64,000 bases of DNA, from positions 12,371 to 76,370 of the forward strand of contig USCI01000001.1 of the NCBI GenBank assembly GCA_900553255.1, in the 5' to 3' direction. Position numbers and translations under genes: made by a program. Of this stretch, positions 6,970 to 62,303 are shown piece after piece. The notes beneath the pieces were generated by a model that saw only the letters and a program-made list of their open reading frames with translations, was not told the DNA's origin and did no database searches. Source of the stretch: an uncultured Oscillospiraceae bacterium (GTDB lineage Bacteria > Bacillota > Clostridia > Oscillospirales > Acutalibacteraceae). Within the stretch, counting starts at the first letter, position 1, and each line of letters opens with the position of its first letter.

Positions 6970-8811
6970 ATGAAAAAACAACTGGTTGTTCTGCTGGCAC
7001 TGTGTATGCTGCTGAGCCTGGTGCTTTCCGGCTGCCAATCGACCACCACGTCCTCCGGTACGCCGGGCGAGGTGCCGGAAAACGGGATCGGCTCGGACGA
7101 TCTGGAATCGGATTTCCCGACCATTCCGCTGGAAAGCAAGGAAATCCGGGTGATGACCACCAACCCGGAATTCGACGAGAAGCTCGTCGAGCTGCTCGGG
7201 CAGCAGTACGGCGTAACGGCGGTCCCGGTAACGGTCAGCTGGGCGGATATCCCGGTGCGGCTGTCCACGATGGTGATGTCGGAGGATGCGCCGGATCTGG
7301 TCATCAACCGCAGCGATCTGGAGGACTATCCGAATTATATCGTCAACAATCTCGTGCAGCCGATCGACGGCTATATCAACCTCGAGCATAAACTGTTCCG
7401 CGACCTCAAGGATGCCTATGAATACTCCCTCTGGGGCGGTGAGCATTATATGCTCATCGGCCATTTGGGGCATGAGATGGGGGTCATGTTCAACACCAGG
7501 CTGTTCGAGGAATACGACCTGGAAAACCCGTGGGAGCTGTACCTTAAGGGTGAATGGGACTGGGACGCGCTGCGGGAGATGGCGATCGAGCTGACCGAGG
7601 ATGAGGACCGTGACGGCACGCCGGAGCGGTACGGCATGCAGTTTGTCAACCCCACCTCGTTTGTGTACAGCACCGGCAAAACGCTCGGGCGGATCGACGG
7701 GGCGAACAAAACCATCGTCAACCAGATCGAGGATCCGGATATCGCGCGGGCAATGAATTTTGTCTCGGACCTGATCACCAAGGATAAGGTGTGCACCACC
7801 GCGGTCAGCAGTGCGATCACCGATTTCCGCAACGGGAAATGTGCGATCCTGTACGGATCGGCGTATCCGTATATCGGTACCGAGCTCAAGGAAATGGCCA
7901 AGGCGGGGATCCTGGGCTTTGCGCCGCTCGCGCGCGACCCGCAGCTGGATACCCATTATGCGCGCGGCCAGTTTGCCGGCTATTTCATTCCGGTCGGGGC
8001 GAAGAACCCGCTGGGCGCGGTGGCGTTTTATGCGGTGGAACGGTATCTCAACACGGTGGGCAAGGAAGAAAAGGATAACGCCGACTGGGCGAAATACCAG
8101 TCTGAATATTATCTCAGCGATCTCAACCGCGAGCAGATTGAGGCGTGCTTCTCGGTGGAGATGCTGCCGGACCTGACGCCGTGGCTGGATCAGGGCGCGA
8201 TGTGGACTATGATCGGTTCGGGCAGCAGCTGGGCGGCGCAGCTGCAGAGCTCGCTGCCGAAGATCAATGCACGCATCGAGGAGCTCACTACGCCCGAAGA
8301 GTACGACGCGCCGTCCGGCCCGAAGGTCATCGACGATTTTGAAGGCTATGGCGACGAGGAAAAGACGCTGTCCCGCTATCTGCTGATGGACGGCGGCGAC
8401 CAGAACATCACCGTGTCGCTGGATGCGGCGCATTCCAATGGCGACGGCAAATTTGCGGCGAAGATCACCTACACGCTGGACAATGCCCTCTGGGGTGGCG
8501 TTTACCGCACGGTCAACAAGACCTGGAACGGCAACAATACGCTGCGCCTGTGGGTGCAGGGCGACGGCAGCGGTCAGGTGCTCGGCCTGCGGTTTGACAC
8601 GGCCAACGGCGGCGTTTGGAGCAAGAACATCGAGATCAACAGCGCCGAGGGCCAGGTCATCGAGATTCCGCTCAGCGAGTTTGAGGATGCGTATGGTTTG
8701 GGCGCGGATATGGATCTGACCAAGGTGACCAAGTTCTATATCTCGTTCGGCGAGATGAAGACCGCCACCAAGACCATGTATATCGACAACATTGAAGTGA
8801 TCGCGAAATAA
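6970..8811 (+). CDS. extracellular solute-binding lipoprotein with C-terminal CBM-like domain
   Basis: Lipobox 'LVLSGCQS'. SBP-like body. The last ~170 aa, 'VIDDFEGYGDEEKTLSRY...LRLWVQGDGSGQVLGLRFD...FYISFGEMKTATKTMYIDNIEVIAK', look like a CBM11/CIA30-type beta-sandwich. Confidence 0.8.
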   Translation: MKKQLVVLLALCMLLSLVLSGCQSTTTSSGTPGEVPENGIGSDDLESDFPTIPLESKEIRVMTTNPEFDEKLVELLGQQYGVTAVPVTVSWADIPVRLSTMVMSEDAPDLVINRSDLEDYPNYIVNNLVQPIDGYINLEHKLFRDLKDAYEYSLWGGEHYMLIGHLGHEMGVMFNTRLFEEYDLENPWELYLKGEWDWDALREMAIELTEDEDRDGTPERYGMQFVNPTSFVYSTGKTLGRIDGANKTIVNQIEDPDIARAMNFVSDLITKDKVCTTAVSSAITDFRNGKCAILYGSAYPYIGTELKEMAKAGILGFAPLARDPQLDTHYARGQFAGYFIPVGAKNPLGAVAFYAVERYLNTVGKEEKDNADWAKYQSEYYLSDLNREQIEACFSVEMLPDLTPWLDQGAMWTMIGSGSSWAAQLQSSLPKINARIEELTTPEEYDAPSGPKVIDDFEGYGDEEKTLSRYLLMDGGDQNITVSLDAAHSNGDGKFAAKITYTLDNALWGGVYRTVNKTWNGNNTLRLWVQGDGSGQVLGLRFDTANGGVWSKNIEINSAEGQVIEIPLSEFEDAYGLGADMDLTKVTKFYISFGEMKTATKTMYIDNIEVIAK

Positions 8812-15191: not shown

Positions 15192-15241
15192 AAAAAACAC
15201 CCGGAAGAAAACCGGCCGGTTTTCTTCCGGGTGTTTTTTTA
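15192..15241 (+). terminator. rho-independent terminator after gatB
   Basis: AAAAAACACCCGGAAGAAAACCGG / CCGGTTTTCTTCCGGGTGTTTTTTT, a long perfect stem with a U-tract. Confidence 0.9.
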
Positions 15242-28095: not shown

Positions 28096-28138
28096 TTGGG
28101 CAACTTGCTACCTGCCAACCAGTTTTTCGACACGCTGA

Positions 28139-28190
28139 GACAGCAAAAGGCTGCCGCACCAGCGGCAGCCTTTTGCTGTCTGTTGCTTTT
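28139..28190 (+). terminator. strong hairpin with a U-rich tail only on the + strand, abutting the stop of the minus-strand permease gene
   Basis: GACAGCAAAAGGCTGCCGC / GCGGCAGCCTTTTGCTGTC (19 bp) followed by TGTTGCTTTTT. Confidence 0.6.
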
Positions 28191-37492: not shown

Positions 37493-37577
37493 TGCCAAAA
37501 GGGAGCCGGACAGAGCCGGCTCCCTTTTGGCGGCTTACGGCGGAAAAAAAGTCTTTCTTAATACGAGGGGATCGGCC

Positions 37578-44323: not shown

Positions 44324-44593
44324 CTTAAAAATTCCTTTCTTCCACGATACGCTTTTTTCCATCTATATTCCATGCAGGGATTTCATGGATCGTTCTTTCC
44401 GCTCCCTGCCATCAATGGCAAAAGTAGTATCTGTCTGAACGGAATTTTTATTCAGCGGCAACAGCCATTTTTTCGCATTGAAAGCCAACACTGTCTGCCC
44501 GTACAACCGCGCTTTCCGGCCAAACACCGGACAATGCCCGGACTTTGTCGTTATCCTGAAGCGACCTGGAAAATGTTTCTATATATTCAAAAT

Positions 44594-44637
44594 ACGGGAA
44601 CGGAGGCTGAGGTGTTGACCTCAGCCTCCGTTCCCGT
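44594..44637 (-). terminator. rho-independent terminator of the membrane AraC regulator gene
   Basis: 19-bp perfect stem ACGGGAACGGAGGCTGAGG / CCTCAGCCTCCGTTCCCGT. The U-rich tail is on the minus strand (CGTATTTTG). Confidence 0.8.
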
Positions 44638-44655
44638 ATACGGCCGCAAACCATC

Positions 44656-47100: not shown

Positions 47101-47234
47101 AAAAACATATTTCAATCAACCCCCGTTTTTGATATGGTTGTTTTGTAAATACGGATTGTTGCCATACCGTTCTGTTTATGATCCGTTTCAAAGGGGTATC
47201 AAATCCCGGCGCCATGAAAAAAGGAGGTCGATTC

Positions 47235-49124
47235 ATGTATTCCCTGCAGGAACTCGGCAAAGCCTATACCCCCATACACGTCGTCGGAAACGGTCGGGTA
47301 TGCGCTTACGGCAACGGCGTGGCTGTCGAGCAGCTGTTTGGCCCGCATTACAGCGCGGCGGTGTTCTGCTCCCTTCTGCCGGCGGGGGAAGCGGCGCAGG
47401 CCGAAACCCGGCGGCTGCCGCAGACCGCCGTTTATGAACACCGGCTGTATGACGCGCACGGGCGGCAGGCGGCGACGATACGCGACTTTGCCGCCGCGGA
47501 GCATACCGCCTTCGTGCGATTGATTGACGGCAGCGTACCCACCGGATGGACGGCACAAACCCGAGCCCCGACCGGCTGGAAGCCGCTTACCCCCGTCCAT
47601 CTGACGGGAGCGCGGGCTTTTTGGGGCGAAATTCCGGAGGGTGCTTCCTTTTACGACTACGCGACCGAACCGGGGCGGGTACGCAGCTACATAACCCCTA
47701 CTCCTTCGCTGATGTGTCTGCTGGTGACCGGTGAAGCGGATATCCAAAACGACGGCGCACTCCTGCATCTGCGCATCGGCAGCGGCATGCTGGCGGCCGT
47801 GTTCGCGGCCGATTTCGGCGGGCTGATGGCGGAATGCCGCCGGGTGCTGGATACCGGCGCCCCGGCACTGCTGGAGGCAGCGCTCGCGGATGGCAGGCGG
47901 TTCTCCGCCCGGCGGTCGGCAAACCGGCCGCTTGCCGATCCCAGGCTTGAGGCGGTGGCCGACGATGTTGCGATGCTCATCCGCTGCCAGCAGTCGGCCT
48001 CCGGCGGCATCATGGCCGGACCGCGCTATCATCTGAGCTATGTGCGGGACAACTACGGCACCCACCGGGGGCTGCTGAGCCTGGGCTGTTTTGACGAGGC
48101 GCGCCGGCTTTTGGGGTTCTATGCCGACACCTTCGCACGCTACGGTGCCGTACACACCGCTCAGGCCACCGATTGCTATGGCTTTCATATCCACGAGCAG
48201 GACGCCGTGGAAATCACTGCATACCTGATGCTCATGGCGGCCGAATACCGGCAGAAAACCGGCGACACCGATACCTTTGCGGCTCTGCTGCCCCTGATCC
48301 GGTGGGCCGCTGCGCAGCAGCATGCACTTCTGAAAAACGGCATGCTCCCGTTCAACGGGGACGAAACCTACATTGCCTGCGGATTGCTGCCCCGCACCGT
48401 CATCAACAACGGTTCCATGGAGGCCACTGCGCTGTATCACCGGGCATGTGACCGCCTGCTGGCCATGGGAGAGGACGCCGGCCTTACAGCGGCACAGCGC
48501 AGCATGCTTGCGGCGGACCGGGAAGACATCGAACGGCTTTTTGCCGATAATTTTGTCTGCAGCGGCACCCTCACTGCCAACTGTCCCCGCTATTACGCCC
48601 CGGGCGAAGCGCCGGCATACCGGCACGGCGTTTACCAGTGCGGTCACGGCATGGGCGGCAATGCCTGCCGCAATCCGGACGGGATCTATGTCTGCCCCGA
48701 CTGCGCCGGCAAATCCATCCCCGGGCTGCAGGAAAACACCGAGCGCCGCTTCACCGTCCCATCGGCCGTGCTGATGCCGGCGGTCGCCGGCTCGCCGCTG
48801 ATGAGCCGCCCTTATGCGGTAAAAACGGTGCAGACAATGCTGGACCATTTCCGTGCCGGCGGCACCTTAGACGGCAGCAGGCGGATGATCGGCTACGAAT
48901 ACGGCGAGCTGCTGTTCGCCCTGCAGGCTGCCGGCTGCGGTACGCCTGCGGATATTGCCGCCATCGGCCGGCAGATGCTGGCGGTGCGGGACGCGGCCGG
49001 CGCCTGGGTGGAGTGCTATGACAACGGGCAGCCGGTGGGCTGCATGTGCCGTCCGTGGGAAAGCGGCATCAACGCCGCCGCACTGCTGGACATCGCCGGA
49101 ACGGCAGCATTTCCGGCGGAATAA
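47235..49124 (+). CDS. (alpha/alpha)6-barrel glycoside hydrolase-like protein (GH15-like), cytoplasmic
   Basis: RBS AAGGAGG 7 nt before ATG 47235. 'GPRYHLSYVRDNYG' resembles the GH15 'Y..W.RD' motif. Helix-rich composition and no signal peptide. Confidence 0.6.
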   Translation: MYSLQELGKAYTPIHVVGNGRVCAYGNGVAVEQLFGPHYSAAVFCSLLPAGEAAQAETRRLPQTAVYEHRLYDAHGRQAATIRDFAAAEHTAFVRLIDGSVPTGWTAQTRAPTGWKPLTPVHLTGARAFWGEIPEGASFYDYATEPGRVRSYITPTPSLMCLLVTGEADIQNDGALLHLRIGSGMLAAVFAADFGGLMAECRRVLDTGAPALLEAALADGRRFSARRSANRPLADPRLEAVADDVAMLIRCQQSASGGIMAGPRYHLSYVRDNYGTHRGLLSLGCFDEARRLLGFYADTFARYGAVHTAQATDCYGFHIHEQDAVEITAYLMLMAAEYRQKTGDTDTFAALLPLIRWAAAQQHALLKNGMLPFNGDETYIACGLLPRTVINNGSMEATALYHRACDRLLAMGEDAGLTAAQRSMLAADREDIERLFADNFVCSGTLTANCPRYYAPGEAPAYRHGVYQCGHGMGGNACRNPDGIYVCPDCAGKSIPGLQENTERRFTVPSAVLMPAVAGSPLMSRPYAVKTVQTMLDHFRAGGTLDGSRRMIGYEYGELLFALQAAGCGTPADIAAIGRQMLAVRDAAGAWVECYDNGQPVGCMCRPWESGINAAALLDIAGTAAFPAE

Positions 49125-49143
49125 GAAAAAGCCTTCACGGTAT

Positions 49144-49413
49144 GAGATAAGCAGGCTCGAACCCGGCCCGCCTTCTCTGGGCAGGACGTCGGCCGTCTGC
49201 GTTTTCGTCCTTGATGGGCGCCAGCCCATCTTCGTTCTCAGCCTTGCCGGACAACGTCCTGCTCCCCAGAGAAGGTCGAAGAATTTCGGAGAGCGGAAGA
49301 AAGGCGGGACAAGGCGCCTGACCGAGGCATGCTGCCGCATGCTAAGGAAAGGCAACGACGGCCGGCTTTTCTTCCGCCGCCGAAATCGTGTCGTGTTCGT
49401 GCCTGCTTATCTT
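49144..49413 (+). other. ~270-nt non-coding element with nested long-range helices (candidate structured RNA or MITE-like element)
   Basis: AGATAAGCAGGC (49145-49156) pairs with GCCTGCTTATCT (49401-49412). CCTTCTCTGGGCAGGACGT (49171-49189) pairs with ACGTCCTGCTCCCCAGAGAAGG (49254-49275). GCGGAAGAAA (49293-49302) pairs with TTTCTTCCGC (49368-49377). Inner hairpins at 49213-49230 and 49328-49343. Confidence 0.55.
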
Positions 49414-49449
49414 AACCAAATCATTCAAACAGAGAGGGGTTCCGATCCG

Positions 49450-50631
49450 ATGGCAAACGATTCTTGGCAGCAGGAGCAATTCGTACTATCCACTTTTCAC
49501 GCAGTGCCTGCCGACGCAGGCGACGAGCTGCCGGCCATTCTCAACGCCTGCAAGGAGGCCGGACTGACCCATGTCGAAACCGCCTTTTCAGCACGGCCTG
49601 CCATCCTGCGGGCACTGGACATCTGCGACGAAATCGGCCTGAAGGTGATCGTGCAGGATCTCGGCTCACTCAGCGGGTTCCAGGATCGCACCACTTCCGC
49701 CGCCACCCCCGAGACGGTGGCCGAGGCGGTAAAAACCTACGGCGCCCACCGGTCGGTGGACGGCTACTACATCTGGGACGAACCGTTTTTCGAGCAGCTG
49801 GACTTTGCCGCCGAAAACACCCGGCTGATCCGGCAGTATGCGCCCGGCAAGCTGCAGCTGATCGCACTGCTGCAGTCCTACAGCCCGGATTATCACTGGG
49901 AAAACGGTCTGTTCCCCCGGTATATTGATACCTTCATCGAGCGTACCGACCCATCCCTTTTATCCTTTGACTATTATGTCTTTGACCATGACGTGGACAA
50001 AGGGGTTTCCCTTGAGGATTCCTACTTGTGGACCGATATGGCGTACATCCGCAAAAAAGCGCTGGAAAACGGCATTCCGTACTGGTACTACCTGCAGCTC
50101 ATCGGCGATATTATCGGGCATCAGCCCGACCGCATTACTCTCGAGCGGGTGCGGGTACAGACCGGCATAGCGCTGGCCTTCGGAGCCTCGGGCATCCAGT
50201 ATTTCAACATCCTCGACGGCATCCTGACCAAACAGGGGGAACGCATGAAGCTGTTCGACCCGGTGGCCGCCCTCAACCGCGAGGTGCTTTCGCTCGGGGA
50301 GGCGCTGTTCGGCAAAAAATCCACCCTCGTTTACCCCTCCGGCAGACTGCTGCACCGCGAATATCTGGACAGCCCGGCCGATTCCCCGCTGGTCGCCGGG
50401 GCGCCGGACGGCCTGTTCATCGGCGAATTTACCGACGAGGCAAGCGATTATCTGCTGGCGGTCAGCCTCGATTACGAACAGCCGCGCACGGGAGAAATCC
50501 GGCTGCGGCAGACACGGCAGGCTGCAGCATTCGACCCGGGCAGCAAAACCTACGGTGCCCCGGAACGCACCGCCGCCCTGGCGTACAATCTGCCGGCCGG
50601 CGGCTATCGTCTGTACCGGTTTGCAAAATAA
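49450..50631 (+). CDS. uncharacterised TIM-barrel-like protein (GH42/clan GH-A-like by eye), cytoplasmic paralog 1 of 3
   Basis: No signal peptide. Blocks shared with the next two genes: 'FVLSTFHAVP', 'GLTHVETAF', 'IGLKVIVQD', 'GYYIWDEPFFEQ', 'LLQSYSPDY', 'LSFDYYVFDHDVDKG', 'IPYWYYLQLIGD', 'GIQYFN'. Confidence 0.8.
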   Translation: MANDSWQQEQFVLSTFHAVPADAGDELPAILNACKEAGLTHVETAFSARPAILRALDICDEIGLKVIVQDLGSLSGFQDRTTSAATPETVAEAVKTYGAHRSVDGYYIWDEPFFEQLDFAAENTRLIRQYAPGKLQLIALLQSYSPDYHWENGLFPRYIDTFIERTDPSLLSFDYYVFDHDVDKGVSLEDSYLWTDMAYIRKKALENGIPYWYYLQLIGDIIGHQPDRITLERVRVQTGIALAFGASGIQYFNILDGILTKQGERMKLFDPVAALNREVLSLGEALFGKKSTLVYPSGRLLHREYLDSPADSPLVAGAPDGLFIGEFTDEASDYLLAVSLDYEQPRTGEIRLRQTRQAAAFDPGSKTYGAPERTAALAYNLPAGGYRLYRFAK

Positions 50632-50643
50632 GGAGGAGAGGCA

Positions 50644-52134
50644 ATGCACGGCAAAAAACGTCTGGCCGGCGCAGCGGCGCTGGCAATCGGCGCGGCCTGT
50701 CTGCTCAGCCCGGCCGCACTCGCCGAGGAGACCCCCAGATACCAGCAGGAGGAATTTGTTATTTCCACCTTCCACGGCGTACCCTCGATGCCTAACGGTT
50801 TTTACAACGAGGTGATGTTCGCCCTCAAGGAGGTGGGGATGACCCATTTGGAGACCGCCTTCACCTCTCCGGAGGGAAGTGAGATGGCTCTTCAGATCGC
50901 AGAGGAGCTGGGCCTGAAGGTCATTGTGCAGGATACCAACCTTTACGGCGGTTTCCAGAACCAGACCATCCCTCCCACCACCGAGGAGGACATCCTCAAA
51001 GTGATCGAGAAATACGCCCAGTACGAGTCCTTCGGCGGTTACTACGTCTGGGATGAGCCGTTTCTTGAACAGCTCGACGACGTAAAAAAGAACATGGACT
51101 GGATACAGAAGCATGATCCCGGCAAGCTGCGGCTGGTGGCACTGCTGCAGTCCTACAGCCCCACCTACTGGTGGCCCAACGGCACCTTCAAGGAATACAT
51201 TGACACCTATGTCGACAAGATTGATCCCGACCATCTGTCCTTCGACTATTACGTGTTCGATGCCGATGTGGATAACGGTACCCCGCTTAAGGATTCCTAC
51301 ATGTGGATGGACATGGCGTATATCCGCAAAAAAGCCCTTGAGCGCGATATCCCGTACTGGTATTACCTGCAGATCCTCGACGATGTGGCGAATCCCAACA
51401 TCAATCCCCAGCCCATGACCCGCGGGCGCATCAGTTTCCAGGTATACACCGCCATGGCGTACGGTGCAACCGGCATCCAGTATTTCAACACCATGGACAG
51501 CATTGTGGACGATTACGGGCGGCGTCTGGACAAATTCGACATCCTCAAGTCCATTAACAGTGAAATCCATAACCTCGGCCCGACCCTGATGGAGCTGACC
51601 TCCACCGTGATTTACCCCACCATTGATCTCGCACGCCACGAATATATCGGCTCCCTGGAGGAGGATGCCACGCTGGTCGCTTCCGCACCGGGGGACATGT
51701 TCTTCGGCGAGTTCAAGGATGACGACGGCAACGACTACCTGCTGCCGGTCAACTGCGATTACGACAACCCGAAAGCCGGCACCATCACCCTTAAAGGGCG
51801 CTGGGATGTCTACGAGCTGGACGCGGCCACCGGCGAAACCAAGCTGAAGGCAGCGGACACCGACACGATCGAGATCGATTATGTTGAGGGCGGCGGCGCA
51901 CTGTACGCACTGCGGCCGGTTGGCGCGGACTTCCCGGTTCTGCCCGGGACCGGGGAGCCGGCAGCACCGGATAATCCGTCGTCGGACGGCCCGTCCTCCG
52001 ACACGGCATCCAACGGGGAAACAGACAACGGGCTGATGACCGTACTGCTGATCGTCGGCGGCATCGTGGCAGCCGGCCTGGTGATCATCGGGGTGATCAT
52101 GGTGGTGAAGCTGCGGCGCCCGGTTAAGAAATGA
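50644..52134 (+). CDS. same family, paralog 2: signal peptide and C-terminal Pro/Ser/Asp linker + TM anchor
   Basis: RBS AAGGAGGAG. 'AALAEE' signal cleavage-like site. The same conserved blocks. C-terminus 'LPGTGEPAAPDNPSSDG..LMTVLLIVGGIVAAGLVIIGVIMVVKLRR'. Confidence 0.85.
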   Translation: MHGKKRLAGAAALAIGAACLLSPAALAEETPRYQQEEFVISTFHGVPSMPNGFYNEVMFALKEVGMTHLETAFTSPEGSEMALQIAEELGLKVIVQDTNLYGGFQNQTIPPTTEEDILKVIEKYAQYESFGGYYVWDEPFLEQLDDVKKNMDWIQKHDPGKLRLVALLQSYSPTYWWPNGTFKEYIDTYVDKIDPDHLSFDYYVFDADVDNGTPLKDSYMWMDMAYIRKKALERDIPYWYYLQILDDVANPNINPQPMTRGRISFQVYTAMAYGATGIQYFNTMDSIVDDYGRRLDKFDILKSINSEIHNLGPTLMELTSTVIYPTIDLARHEYIGSLEEDATLVASAPGDMFFGEFKDDDGNDYLLPVNCDYDNPKAGTITLKGRWDVYELDAATGETKLKAADTDTIEIDYVEGGGALYALRPVGADFPVLPGTGEPAAPDNPSSDGPSSDTASNGETDNGLMTVLLIVGGIVAAGLVIIGVIMVVKLRRPVKK

Positions 52135-52144
52135 GGTCGTGTTC

Positions 52145-53683
52145 ATGAAAAAAGCAATCAAACGCCCTCTGGCGCTGGCGGCTGCGCTGTGTATCTCCGG
52201 TTCCGCCTGCGCGGCATCGCCGGCCGAAGCGCTGCCCGCACCGGCAGGCGAAACGCTTGTCCAGACCGATTTCGTCATCTCCACCTTTCATTGTGTTCCC
52301 GGCGGCCTCACCCCGGAATACCCTCAGCTTCTCACCCTGGCCAAGGAGGCGGGGCTGACCCACGTGGAAACCACCTTCACCGCGCCTTCCGCCAGCCAGA
52401 CAGTGCTGGACATCGCGGAACAGATCGGGTTAAAGGTGATCGTACAGGACTACACCCGCTTCGGCGGGTTCCAGAACTGGCCCGACCGCATCGCCGCCAC
52501 CACCGAGGACAGCGCAAAAGAAGCGGTGGAAATGTTCGATTCCCCGGCCCTGGCCGGCTATTACATCTGGGATGAACCGTTTCTTGAGCAGTTTGAACAG
52601 GTACGTCAGGACATCGGTATCATGGACCGGTTGGATCCCGGAAAAATCCAGCTGGTAACCATGCTGCAGAGCTACAGCCCCGACTACACCTGGGACAACG
52701 GCATGTACAAAACATACCTTGACCGCTATATGGCCGAGGTGCGGCCTCCGCTGCTGGTATTCGACTACTACGTCTTCGACCATGATGTGGATAAGGGGGT
52801 CGGCCTGTACGACTCCGCAATGTGGAAGGATATGGGCTATATCCGCCTGAAGGCTAAGGAGGCGGATATCCCCTACTGGTTCTATATCCAGCTCATCGGG
52901 GACATTCCCAACAACACGCCCGGCACCATGACCGTCCCCCGCGTCGCGGTGCAGGATTATATTTCGCTGGCGTTCGGGGTGTCCGGTATCTCCTACTACA
53001 ACGCCATCGAGGGCATTTTTGACGACAAGGGCAACAAAAACCATCTGTATGACGGGGTGGCTGCCCTCAACCGGGATATTCTGACGCTCGGCCGGGCGCT
53101 GCTCGGCGCGGAATCCACCCTGGTCTACCATACCTCCCCACTGCAGCATGACGATTATCTTGACCAGTTGGGGGACTCCGAAACGGTGGAAGCGGCGCCG
53201 GCCGACCTGTTTATCGGCGAGTTCAACGCCCCGGACGGCGGGCAGTATCTGCTGCCGGTAAATACCGATTATGAAAAGGAACGCAGCGGAAGCATCCGGC
53301 TGAAAGCGTCAAAAACCGTGTACCGCATCGACAAAGCCACCGGACAGCCGGTGCTCGTTGCCGAAAGCACCGATGCCATCGACTACCAGATGGCGGCAGG
53401 CGAAGGCGAGCTGTACTGGCTGACCGATCTGCCCTCCGATCCGCCGCCGGTTGTCCCGACCGGTGACCAACCCGCCGCAAGCGAACCGGATTCCCCGGCT
53501 GAAACCGGCGGATCCGAAAGCGGCATCCCATCAACCGGTACGGAACCAGGCGCCTCTCCCCCCATTGGGCTGATTGCCGCACTGGTGCTTGGCGGCGCCG
53601 TCCTGCTCGGCGGTGCCGGGATCGTCTGTGCGTATCTTTACCGACGGAAAACCATGAACAAAAGAAAGGAGCCACCGCAATGA
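52145..53683 (+). CDS. same family, paralog 3: signal peptide and C-terminal linker + TM anchor
   Basis: ATG 52145 after GAGG. The same conserved blocks. C-terminus 'IPSTGTEPGASPPIGLIAALVLGGAVLLGGAGIVCAYLYRRK'. Confidence 0.85.
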   Translation: MKKAIKRPLALAAALCISGSACAASPAEALPAPAGETLVQTDFVISTFHCVPGGLTPEYPQLLTLAKEAGLTHVETTFTAPSASQTVLDIAEQIGLKVIVQDYTRFGGFQNWPDRIAATTEDSAKEAVEMFDSPALAGYYIWDEPFLEQFEQVRQDIGIMDRLDPGKIQLVTMLQSYSPDYTWDNGMYKTYLDRYMAEVRPPLLVFDYYVFDHDVDKGVGLYDSAMWKDMGYIRLKAKEADIPYWFYIQLIGDIPNNTPGTMTVPRVAVQDYISLAFGVSGISYYNAIEGIFDDKGNKNHLYDGVAALNRDILTLGRALLGAESTLVYHTSPLQHDDYLDQLGDSETVEAAPADLFIGEFNAPDGGQYLLPVNTDYEKERSGSIRLKASKTVYRIDKATGQPVLVAESTDAIDYQMAAGEGELYWLTDLPSDPPPVVPTGDQPAASEPDSPAETGGSESGIPSTGTEPGASPPIGLIAALVLGGAVLLGGAGIVCAYLYRRKTMNKRKEPPQ

Positions 53684-55355: not shown

Positions 55356-55392
55356 GGAGCTGCTGCAAAAGGAAACCTTTTGCAGCAGCTCC
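55356..55392 (+). other. perfect 17-bp intercistronic stem-loop between the two SBP genes
   Basis: GGAGCTGCTGCAAAAGG-aaa-CCTTTTGCAGCAGCTCC with no U-tract after it. Confidence 0.7.
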
Positions 55393-60182: not shown

Positions 60183-62303
60183 ATGAAAATCCAAAAAGTC
60201 CTTGCGCTCCTCCTCACGGCGGTGCTGCCTGTTATGGCGGCGCTGCCTGCCGGTGCGGCCAGCGACCAGTTCACGCTGGAGGATAACGAGCGCATCCCAA
60301 TCCCGGAGGCCTATACCCTTGAGAGAACCCTCTCCGGTTTCACGGCCGACGGGCAGCAACAGCAATTTAGCGGCATACTGGACATCTTCATAGATGAAGG
60401 CGGCACGCTGTACGTCAGCGATACCGCGAACAACCGCGTGGTCCGGCTGGATGCCGACGGCAACTGCACCGGCGTTTTCACCGGCGACGAGAAGGGCTTC
60501 AGCAATCCGGACGGCCTGTTTGTCGACGATACCGGCGATATATTCGTCGCCGATACCGGCAACAAGCGGATTGTGCATCTGGATAAAAACGGCGGGTTTA
60601 TCGAGGAATTCGGCAAGCCGGAATCCGAGCTCCTGGACGAAAACTTCGATTACCGCCCGTCCAAGATCTGCGTCAGCGATACAGGCTATATTTATGTCAT
60701 CAAAGAGCAGGCGATTATGCAGCTGGATTCCCTCAACCGGTTCCGCGGCTATATCGGCCAGCCGGAAGTTGGCTTTAGCTTCACCGATTTTCTGCTGCGC
60801 ATCTTTGCTTCCGAAAATCAAAGCCGGCTCATTGAGAAACGGCTGCCGGCAACCTATTCCAACATCCTTCTGGATCAGGAGGGCAACCTGTTCGCCGTAT
60901 CGCGGGACACCACCGACGGCGAAATCAAGCAGCTCAACTCCATCGGCAAAAACATCTACCGCGAATATGCCGAAGGCAACGTGATCACCAGCACCATAAT
61001 GAGCTTCCTGAGCCTGGAAGGGACCATGCAGTGGTTCGGCGAACGGACCGATCCGGCGGGCAATCCACGCGTCCCTACTTTCAGCGATATCGCGGTGGAC
61101 AGCAACGGCGTGGTGACGGTTCTGGATTCCGGCAACCTGCAGCTGTATCAGTACGACCCGGAGGGACAGCTGCTGTGTTCGTTCGGCGGCCAGGGGACAA
61201 GGCGCGGGAAATTCTCCTCCCCGACCTCTATCGCAGTCGGGCCGGACGGCCGCATCTATGTGGCCGACCGTACCCAGAACAACATCCAGGTATTCGCCCC
61301 CACCGCCTTCATCCAAAGTGTGCACGAGGCGGTGGCCGCCTACGCTGACGGCGACTATGAGAAAGCGTTTACCTGCTGGCAGGCGGTGCTGAGCATCGAC
61401 GAAAACTACCGCTTTGCCCACGACGGCATCGCCGATACCCTATACAAGCGCGGCCAGTACAGCGAAGCGATGGACGAATATGTCATCGCCGAAAACCGCG
61501 AGGGCTACACCAAAGCGTTCAACGAACACCGCATGGAGCTGTTCAAGCAATATTTCGTGCTGATTATCCTGTGCATCCTCGCCATCGCTGCGGCGGTATG
61601 GTTTTTCGGCCGCTGGCTGCTGCACGCCGGCAGGCGGGCACAGCACCGCTTTCTCTTCAAGGAAGAGGGCCGGAACAGGCTCGGCAACTTCCTGCTGCTG
61701 GCACCTGCCATGATGACCAGGCCCAGCGACACGGTGGAAGCCGTCAAGGAAAACCGCGGCCATAACCGGATGCTTCCGGGGATACTGGTCATACTCGCCG
61801 CACTCGCTTCACGGCTCATATACATTTTCATTGTGCATTTCCCGCTCATGGACGTCTCTCCGCAGAACGTCAACCTGGTGCTGGAGGTGCTCAAGATGGT
61901 GCTGCCGGTTGTCACCTGGGCGGTTGCCTCTTATGCGGTATCCTCCATCATGGGCGGCGAAGCGCGCTTCGACGAGGTTTTCCTGTGCGCGTCGTTCGGC
62001 ATGATCCCCTATGTGATGTTTACTCTGCCGATGGGCCTTGTCTCCAACGTACTCGCCCACGGCGAACAGCAATTTTATGCCATCGCCACCATTATTGTGT
62101 TCGTCTGGCAGATCGTGCTGATGTTCATCGGATTGATGCAACTCAACCGTTACGGCTTCTGGCAGGCGGTAGGCGTCGGCATCATCAGCCTGCTGGTCAT
62201 GCTGCTGTTCTGGGTGGTGGCTATCCTGTGTTTCGGCCTGATCGGCCAGCTTATCCGCTTTGCGGACGGTCTGATCACCGAAATCCGCCTGAATTCGCTA
62301 TAG
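60183..62303 (+). CDS. membrane protein: signal peptide + NHL-repeat propeller + TPR-like + Yip1-like multi-TM domain (paralog of 602..2710)
   Basis: 'LYVSDTANNRVVRLD', 'IFVADTGNKRIVHLD' and 'IYVADRTQNNIQVF' NHL motifs. 'YADGDYEKAFTCWQAVL'. About 6 C-terminal TM helices. Confidence 0.85.
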   Translation: MKIQKVLALLLTAVLPVMAALPAGAASDQFTLEDNERIPIPEAYTLERTLSGFTADGQQQQFSGILDIFIDEGGTLYVSDTANNRVVRLDADGNCTGVFTGDEKGFSNPDGLFVDDTGDIFVADTGNKRIVHLDKNGGFIEEFGKPESELLDENFDYRPSKICVSDTGYIYVIKEQAIMQLDSLNRFRGYIGQPEVGFSFTDFLLRIFASENQSRLIEKRLPATYSNILLDQEGNLFAVSRDTTDGEIKQLNSIGKNIYREYAEGNVITSTIMSFLSLEGTMQWFGERTDPAGNPRVPTFSDIAVDSNGVVTVLDSGNLQLYQYDPEGQLLCSFGGQGTRRGKFSSPTSIAVGPDGRIYVADRTQNNIQVFAPTAFIQSVHEAVAAYADGDYEKAFTCWQAVLSIDENYRFAHDGIADTLYKRGQYSEAMDEYVIAENREGYTKAFNEHRMELFKQYFVLIILCILAIAAAVWFFGRWLLHAGRRAQHRFLFKEEGRNRLGNFLLLAPAMMTRPSDTVEAVKENRGHNRMLPGILVILAALASRLIYIFIVHFPLMDVSPQNVNLVLEVLKMVLPVVTWAVASYAVSSIMGGEARFDEVFLCASFGMIPYVMFTLPMGLVSNVLAHGEQQFYAIATIIVFVWQIVLMFIGLMQLNRYGFWQAVGVGIISLLVMLLFWVVAILCFGLIGQLIRFADGLITEIRLNSL

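Follow-up and report, generated by a model that had tools for sequence, protein, structure and literature searches.

The operon studied here lies within a 64-kb stretch of DNA, which we refer to as the window, and looks like part of an uncharacterised carbohydrate-utilisation locus. AraC-type regulators and an MGH1-like glycoside hydrolase are encoded in the preceding part of the locus, followed by a 648-aa protein for which we found no Pfam family and very few relatives. Downstream, three tandem paralogous genes (49450-53683; 393, 496 and 514 aa) also fall into no Pfam family. A search of 5.8 billion proteins gave 26 relatives of these paralogs at E ≤ 1e-20, most of them unnamed, with PF08329 present in 2 of the 26. 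On the 3' side of the paralogs lie genes for ABC permeases and for two solute-binding proteins, of which one (986 aa) has an extended N terminus. Between the upstream gene and the first of the paralogs is a spacer of about 325 nt, most of which is occupied by the element described below. The coordinates of the element, its parts and its neighbours are given in Table 1.

Table 1. Features of the element, its target site and flanking genes (window positions unless a contig is named)
Feature	Position	Strand	Remarks
Element proper, 268-nt non-coding MITE copy	49145..49412		Ends set by contig divergence points and by copies L089, L090 and L098
5' terminal inverted repeat AGATAAGCAGGCTCGAA	49145..49161		Complementary to the 3' end
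3' terminal inverted repeat TTCGTGCCTGCTTATCT	49396..49412		T49400 is a private mismatch
Degenerate 5' TA target duplication	49143..49144		Reads TG; other copies have TA here
3' TA target duplication	49413..49414		TA in all copies; single TA in the X9 empty allele
Arm 1	49169..49277		Base helix 49171-49191 / 49255-49275; tip hairpin 49213-49230
Arm 2	49283..49386		Helices 49283-49289 / 49380-49386 and 49293-49308 / 49362-49377; tip 49328-49343
Upstream gene, 648-aa ORF (629 aa from 47235)	47178..49124	+	Stop ends 20 nt before the element
Downstream gene, 393 aa	49450..50631	+	RBS GAGAGGGG (49433-49440) and ATG 49450 outside the element
3'-end fragments	L026:4720-4770; L088:15-61; L091:4001-4051		Matching the 3' end of the element

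Set against the adjacent operon junctions, which are 4-12 nt long or overlap, the distance from the last base of the upstream stop codon (49124) to the downstream ATG (49450) is unusually large, as the initial annotation had pointed out, and every helix claimed there is present in the sequence. The outer helix is a perfect 12 bp (49145-49156 with 49401-49412), extends imperfectly to 31 nt (49145-49175 with 49382-49412, 81% complementary) and forms the longest inverted repeat in the window. Within it the base helix of arm 1 carries a 3-nt bulge and arm 2 is built from two helices, with the tips formed by the hairpins GATGGGC-gcca-GCCCATC in arm 1 and GCATGC-tgcc-GCATGC in arm 2. Fold energies were compared with those of dinucleotide-preserving shuffles. 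The plus-strand RNA of the whole spacer is predicted to fold with -160 kcal/mol, compared to a shuffle mean of -117 (z = -7.5), and none of the 100 shuffles folded as well. The minus-strand RNA also folds well (z = -5.6), as does the element as single-stranded DNA (z = -8.1), which suggests that the structure reflects palindromic DNA rather than one strand of a transcript. No riboswitch or housekeeping RNA had been recognised in the initial annotation and this was borne out by a search of Rfam, which returned no relevant family for the spacer at either permissive or gathering thresholds. We also found no tRNA or tmRNA in the 64-kb window.

A structured spacer in front of a sugar-utilisation gene raises the question of whether it acts as a switch. 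The segment CCTTCTCTG (49171-49179) is complementary at 8 of 9 positions to the Shine-Dalgarno region of the downstream gene (49430-49438), a region which CAGAGAAGG (49267-49275) resembles, and from this complementarity and likeness an anti-SD / anti-anti-SD switch could be drawn. In the minimum-energy fold, however, the ribosome-binding site and the ATG of the downstream gene are unpaired and the 49171-49179 segment is locked in an 11-bp helix, and we rejected sequestration of the Shine-Dalgarno region on these grounds. The plus strand also contains two weak terminator-like hairpins followed by T residues, but 1.1 such matches are expected from shuffles and a terminator reading was likewise rejected.

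The view that the spacer holds no protein-like frame stands in part. The plus-strand translation is rich in arginine and does not resemble a protein, but the downstream gene's frame meets no stop codon anywhere in the element, running unbroken in an ORF at 48955..50631. As it reaches upstream as far as a TTG at 48955, automatic annotation could lengthen the downstream gene by 165 codons. The GC content at third codon positions (GC3) of the extension over the element is 0.66, versus 0.75-0.77 in the neighbouring genes, and the open frames of the element overall encode Arg-rich peptides with a GC3 of 0.54-0.67. At 268 nt, well under 1 kb, the element is short and without coding capacity, as expected of a MITE. 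A frame free of stop codons also covers nearly the entire element on the minus strand. We found essentially no protein relatives of the element frames. A search with the concatenated six-frame peptides gave no match, the query having probably been swamped by low-complexity words, and searching the +2 frame against 1.84 billion representatives returned a single relative, P0001, a 42-aa ORF that is 66% identical to the 3' half of the element.

The clearest indication of what the element is came from metagenomes. In all 11 of the gut metagenomes examined that hold it (X1, X2 and X4-X12), sequencing depth over 49140-49411 exceeds the depth over the flanking genes by a factor of 2-20, a measure taken throughout from metagenome contigs and not equivalent to copy counts per genome. 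Depth is 26-110 over the element against 4-7.5 in the flanks in X1, 30-88 against 6 in X9, 9-72 against 4.6 in X8 and 7-28 against 2-4 in X7. The contigs part from the window exactly before 49145 and after 49414-49419, continuing into at least ten distinct flanks. Independent assemblies of the same operon (L003, L095, L096, L097 and L099) end inside the element.

Metagenome contigs were also scanned by pattern, which yielded assembled copies at a minimum of four other, unrelated loci. The contig L089 contains a full-length copy (7033-7301; 269 nt, 97% identical) located between a LysR regulator gene and a gene for an NHL/TPR/Yip1 protein, to both of which it is antisense. A 168-nt form is present in L090 (1129-1296), and L086, L087 and L092 carry copies at contig ends. 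The genes beside these copies are unrelated to one another, and include a GDSL lipase and a protease-like protein in addition to the LysR and NHL/TPR/Yip1 genes. Orientation relative to neighbouring genes is mixed, being sense in the window and antisense in L089; for L090 (sense) and L092 (antisense) the assignment comes only from the positions of ORFs. Many similar copies are therefore dispersed over unrelated sites, as in a MITE family. Within the 64-kb window itself no further copy was found by pattern search, BLAST or an nhmmer profile, and viral contigs, plasmids and phages gave no match to the element. Scanning 185,579 species genomes for the terminal-repeat 17-mer gave 82 matches, all attributable to chance except L026. 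No partner repeat was found within 4 kb of the 17-mer matches, save for two 4-mismatch chance matches on archaeal contigs.

The match in L026 belongs to a second class of related sequence. L026, L088 and L091 each hold a 41-51-nt fragment of the 3' end, located in the interval between carA and an ANTAR regulator gene. In the metagenomes the 3'-terminal 45-80 nt (window 49333-49414) exceed the 5' part 3-6-fold in abundance, and are joined to other upstream sequences at junctions 49333, 49359 and 49368. These pieces could be either truncated copies or more distant members that have only that end in common. P0001 likewise points to relatives that would share the 3' end.

The ends of the element are sharply defined, with the break points of the contigs coinciding with the ends of the terminal repeats. 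The 5' repeat AGATAAGCAGGCTCGAA is the same in the window and in L089, L086, L092 and L098, and differs at its last base in L090. In the window copy the first 12 bp pair perfectly and 16 of 17 positions match, the exception being position 49400. The commonest base here among the other copies is A, which holds a majority in several of the runs (66.9 of 112.7 depth units carry T49400A in X1) and is also found in L087, L090, L026, L089 and L098. With A at this position the termini become a perfect 17-bp inverted repeat, AGATAAGCAGGCTCGAA ... TTCGAGCCTGCTTATCT, in most copies. In L090 the repeat is perfect over 16 bp, the 17th pair being lost through A49161C, and agreement with the consensus is seen in the terminal 17-mers of L087, L086 and L092. 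Terminal inverted repeats thus lie at the extreme ends of the element, the arrangement expected of a MITE.

Immediately outside these repeats the copies share very little. The left flanks of L089, L090 and L092 read TTA followed by AGATAAG, the first bases of the element, and the contig flanks in X1, X6, X7, X8, X11, X12 and X28 finish in (T/A)TA. On the right side every copy reads ...CTTATCT and then TA, after which the sequences diverge, the next base being A, C or T. The sole invariant on both flanks is TA, the base before the 5' TA being T or A, and the copy in the window is the exception in having TG on its 5' side. Across the family the pattern is therefore one of insertion at TA with duplication of the target, as in MITEs derived from IS630/Tc1-mariner elements. 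Since TA is palindromic, it could, until more empty sites are available, also be counted as part of the repeat.

One such empty site was recovered. A contig from X9 shows the same operon junction empty, its spacer being about 55 nt long with one TA where the element would sit. Its depth, 6.1, equals that of the flanks, while the element is abundant elsewhere in the same metagenome. The contig joins 49138 to 49413 via AGCA (...CCTTCACG-AGCA-TAACCAAATC...), and the filled allele reads ...CACG-GTA-TG-(element)-TA-ACC.... We take the empty allele to mean that the native spacer is about 55 nt long, with one TA at the point of insertion. The surrounding 380 nt are nearly identical between the two alleles. 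The 6 nt to the left of the insertion differ by three small changes, with GTA-TG in the filled and AGCA-TA in the empty allele, and we have treated these as local polymorphism. We also considered whether the empty allele could be the footprint of an excision and rejected this, as AGCA is unlike the expected remnants of the element ends. Given the TG in the left copy of the target and the altered bases before it, the duplication does not read cleanly here, and the case for TA duplication rests on the family as a whole, in which other copies carry TA at both ends where the window copy carries TG and TA.

The copies also vary in their internal structure. The 168-nt form in L090 is without arm 2, and the same joint, 49284->49386, recurs in X1, X7, X8 and X11. 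The existence of these short forms indicates that arm 2 is dispensable. Other recurrent internal deletions or replacements join 49220->49333 and 49308/49314->49369. A third allele of the window's own locus is present in L098 (NCBI MAG GCA_949297165.1, 1271-1643), in which the flanks are 100% identical to the window, the aberrant TG included. Here the element measures about 374 nt. Its arm-1 tip is swapped for a 117-nt segment predicted to form four small hairpins, the CTC bulge is missing and some 14 bases are substituted. That the element should be far more diverged than its identical flanks suggests ectopic conversion, through which the L098 element may have exchanged sequence with other copies.

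The element is a multi-copy repeat with sharp ends, a 17-bp terminal repeat, TA flanks, size variants and a junction found both filled and empty. On this basis we conclude with considerable confidence that 49145-49412 is one copy of a MITE, a DNA transposon that neither encodes protein nor moves autonomously. The candidates put forward in the initial annotation had included a MITE-like insertion with terminal inverted repeats, and this was the right one, as many near-identical copies are found elsewhere. The family is of a known type and is not a dedicated regulatory RNA. It appears to be undescribed, with no match in Rfam, plasmids or phages, and our search of the literature on MITEs in Ruminococcaceae and Oscillospiraceae found nothing relevant. 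It also appears to be active, or to have been recently active, in uncultured Ruminococcaceae-like bacteria of about 60% GC from chicken and human guts.

Insertion at TA with target duplication by a DDE transposase is the habit of the IS630/Tc1-mariner superfamily. A transposase of this type would act in trans, binding the terminal repeats, inserting the element at TA and duplicating the TA. An autonomous partner, meaning a transposase gene with the same repeats, was found neither in the window nor in the fetched loci nor in plasmid, phage and viral collections, and we can therefore only infer the mobilisation and the family of the transposase. At the present locus the native spacer, about 55 nt long and lying between two genes that would be co-transcribed, would have been lengthened to 325 nt by the insertion. 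The nested 'RNA structure' would then be a consequence of the palindromic build of the element, in which two long hairpins are enclosed by the paired terminal repeats. Passive carriage on the mRNA of the operon is probable, and the element would there adopt its very stable fold and leave the downstream ribosome-binding site free. Polarity, cleavage by RNases or stability of the mRNA might be affected as a by-product, and a processing or stability element, also proposed in the initial annotation, would fit only as such a side effect.

All this agrees with how bacterial MITEs have been defined in the literature, as elements that have terminal inverted repeats with 5'-TA-3' termini, duplicate their target, give transcripts that form base-paired stem-loops and occur in long and short forms (PMC2229807). 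Classical bacterial MITEs measure 100-200 bp; the present element exceeds them in size (268 nt) and, having two arms in its interior, also in complexity. Its closest analogues are RUP and the Correia elements. RUP from Streptococcus pneumoniae is likewise a non-coding intergenic repeat of a Gram-positive bacterium, with terminal inverted repeats, insertion at TA, a stable stem-loop and highly similar copies that suggest recent spread (PMC2229807), and it is thought to be mobilised by IS630-Spn1. RUP differs in its length of 107 bp, its 9-bp repeat and its identified IS630-family partner, compared with the 268 nt, 17-bp repeat and two arms described here, and the element has no sequence similarity to RUP or to anything else tested. 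The Correia/NEMIS elements of Neisseria resemble it in their TA termini with target duplication, their long terminal repeats (24 bp) and their long and short forms, which differ by an internal segment (155 versus 107 bp, where the present family has forms of 268, 168 and 374 nt) (PMC2229807). Co-transcription with adjacent genes is frequent among them, and cleavage of the resulting RNA hairpins by RNase III has been proposed (PMC2229807). They belong to another phylum, however, have no sequence relation to the element and are smaller, with a single stem-loop. Promoter and IHF-site functions have been demonstrated for Correia elements. The CIR repeats of Caulobacter and Brucella share the possession of two long hairpin arms instead of one stem (PMC2229807). 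They carry GANTC methylation motifs and have neither terminal inverted repeats nor a proven target duplication, whereas here the two arms are enclosed by a stem of terminal repeats and flanked by TA.

A mobile origin would be compatible with a local function acquired after insertion. The copy in the window could serve as an RNase III site, a barrier to 3' exonucleases or a partial terminator, and so set the ratio of upstream to downstream expression. It lies between co-directional genes, with which it would be co-transcribed, its fold of -160 kcal/mol contains long near-perfect duplexes, and the filled allele is present with intact flanking genes in the independent samples L001, L002 and L098. 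Precedents exist in which the RNA structures of MITEs affect neighbouring transcripts (PMC2229807). Sequences of the element do occur in metatranscriptome contigs from the chicken gut, but none of these RNA contigs spans the junction between flank and element, and RNA libraries may contain DNA. The empty allele indicates that the operon does not need the element, and the swapped arm tip and roughly 14 substitutions in L098 argue against tight constraint. Correia/NEMIS and REP/BIME elements are reported to tune the relative expression of neighbouring genes, and by analogy (PMC2229807) an effect of the element on the processing or stability of the mRNA is possible. Overall we consider it unlikely that this copy has been recruited in such a way. 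Were the insertion found to alter downstream expression, it would be another case of operon tuning by a MITE, which is an already known phenomenon.

A related question is whether selection maintains the fold itself. RNAalifold applied to the four assembled copies found none of 90 pairs to be compensated and a positive covariation term (+3.6), and most substitutions among these copies disrupt pairs; the covariation looked for as a mark of a functional RNA is absent from this set. Two findings speak for the opposite. In L098 the pair 49178/49268 changes from T-A to C-G. In a diverged sub-family, known from metagenome contigs only, the base of arm 1 is formed by CCTCCTCCCCGGCAGGACG and CGTCCTGCCGGGGAGGAGG, a perfect 19-bp helix that differs from that of the window by three or more double changes. 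These double substitutions hint at some constraint on the arm-1 hairpin, and comparison of the copies shows that the predicted hairpins persist in the family. The two-arm architecture might then be under selection, either because the folded strand, as DNA or RNA, is the substrate or guide of an undescribed form of mobilisation, or because the arms are portable modules for mRNA processing or stability in gut Clostridia. Such a reading would draw on the maintenance of the arm-1 helix through those double changes, on the modular swapping of tips and on the conserved, over-represented 3' terminus. The persistence of hairpins, however, would fit selection on RNA, selection on transposition-competent DNA or mutation that homogenises palindromes equally well, and we regard selection on the two arms as improbable.

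The strong folding of the single-stranded DNA also brings to mind hairpin-type repeats moved by an HUH/Y1 transposase, either REPIN/BIME-like repeats with a RAYT or palindromes derived from IS200/IS605. REP/BIME and REPIN sequences are dispersed intergenic palindromes, often located inside operons, and their stable mRNA hairpins can affect stability. Hairpin elements moved by HUH/Y1 enzymes insert beside a short target word without duplicating it. The 5' flank of the present family is (T/A)TA in nearly all copies, which is tighter than the base following the 3' TA, and a constrained 5' flank would be in keeping with insertion on the 3' side of a fixed word; the several-fold excess of the 3' end over the 5' part could be read in the same way. 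Against this, the extreme ends form a perfect 17-bp inverted repeat, which is a signature of DDE elements and not of IS200/IS605 ends or REP pairs, and TA is present on both sides of the element and once in the empty allele. No RAYT or TnpA gene happened to come to notice. REPIN and IS200/IS605 elements are recognised by the absence of both a terminal inverted repeat and a target duplication, and REP units, which are served by a Y1 transposase, are 20-40 nt long, do not duplicate TA and lack terminal repeats spanning the element. We consider mobilisation of this kind very improbable.

A dedicated cis-regulatory RNA, a riboswitch, attenuator or leader that senses a signal and controls transcription or translation of the downstream genes, had also been suggested for the spacer and would account for its very stable fold directly upstream of a gene of the sugar-utilisation operon, but with the same sequence beside unrelated genes at unrelated loci in both orientations, an operon junction that exists without it, no fixed position or orientation, and neither an Rfam family nor covariation among the assembled copies, we discount this possibility almost entirely.

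Insertion of a MITE explains both the anomalous length of the spacer and its fold, and the sequence should not be catalogued as a candidate riboswitch. As the element breaks metagenome assemblies at its copies, its consensus should help in scaffolding and in typing strains by filled and empty sites.

Two further observations concern the surroundings of the copies. The copy in L089 lies 38 nt upstream of the gene for the NHL/TPR/Yip1-domain protein (L089:4920-6995, minus strand), and the last gene of the operon in the window (60183-62303, plus strand) encodes a protein of the same domain architecture. The window also contains perfect intergenic hairpins with stems of 16-24 bp, at 15192-15239, 44592-44639, 28138-28181, 55356-55392 and 37494-37531. 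One of them is a 48-nt perfect palindrome flanked by A/T runs, and these hairpins are probably bidirectional or ordinary intrinsic terminators.
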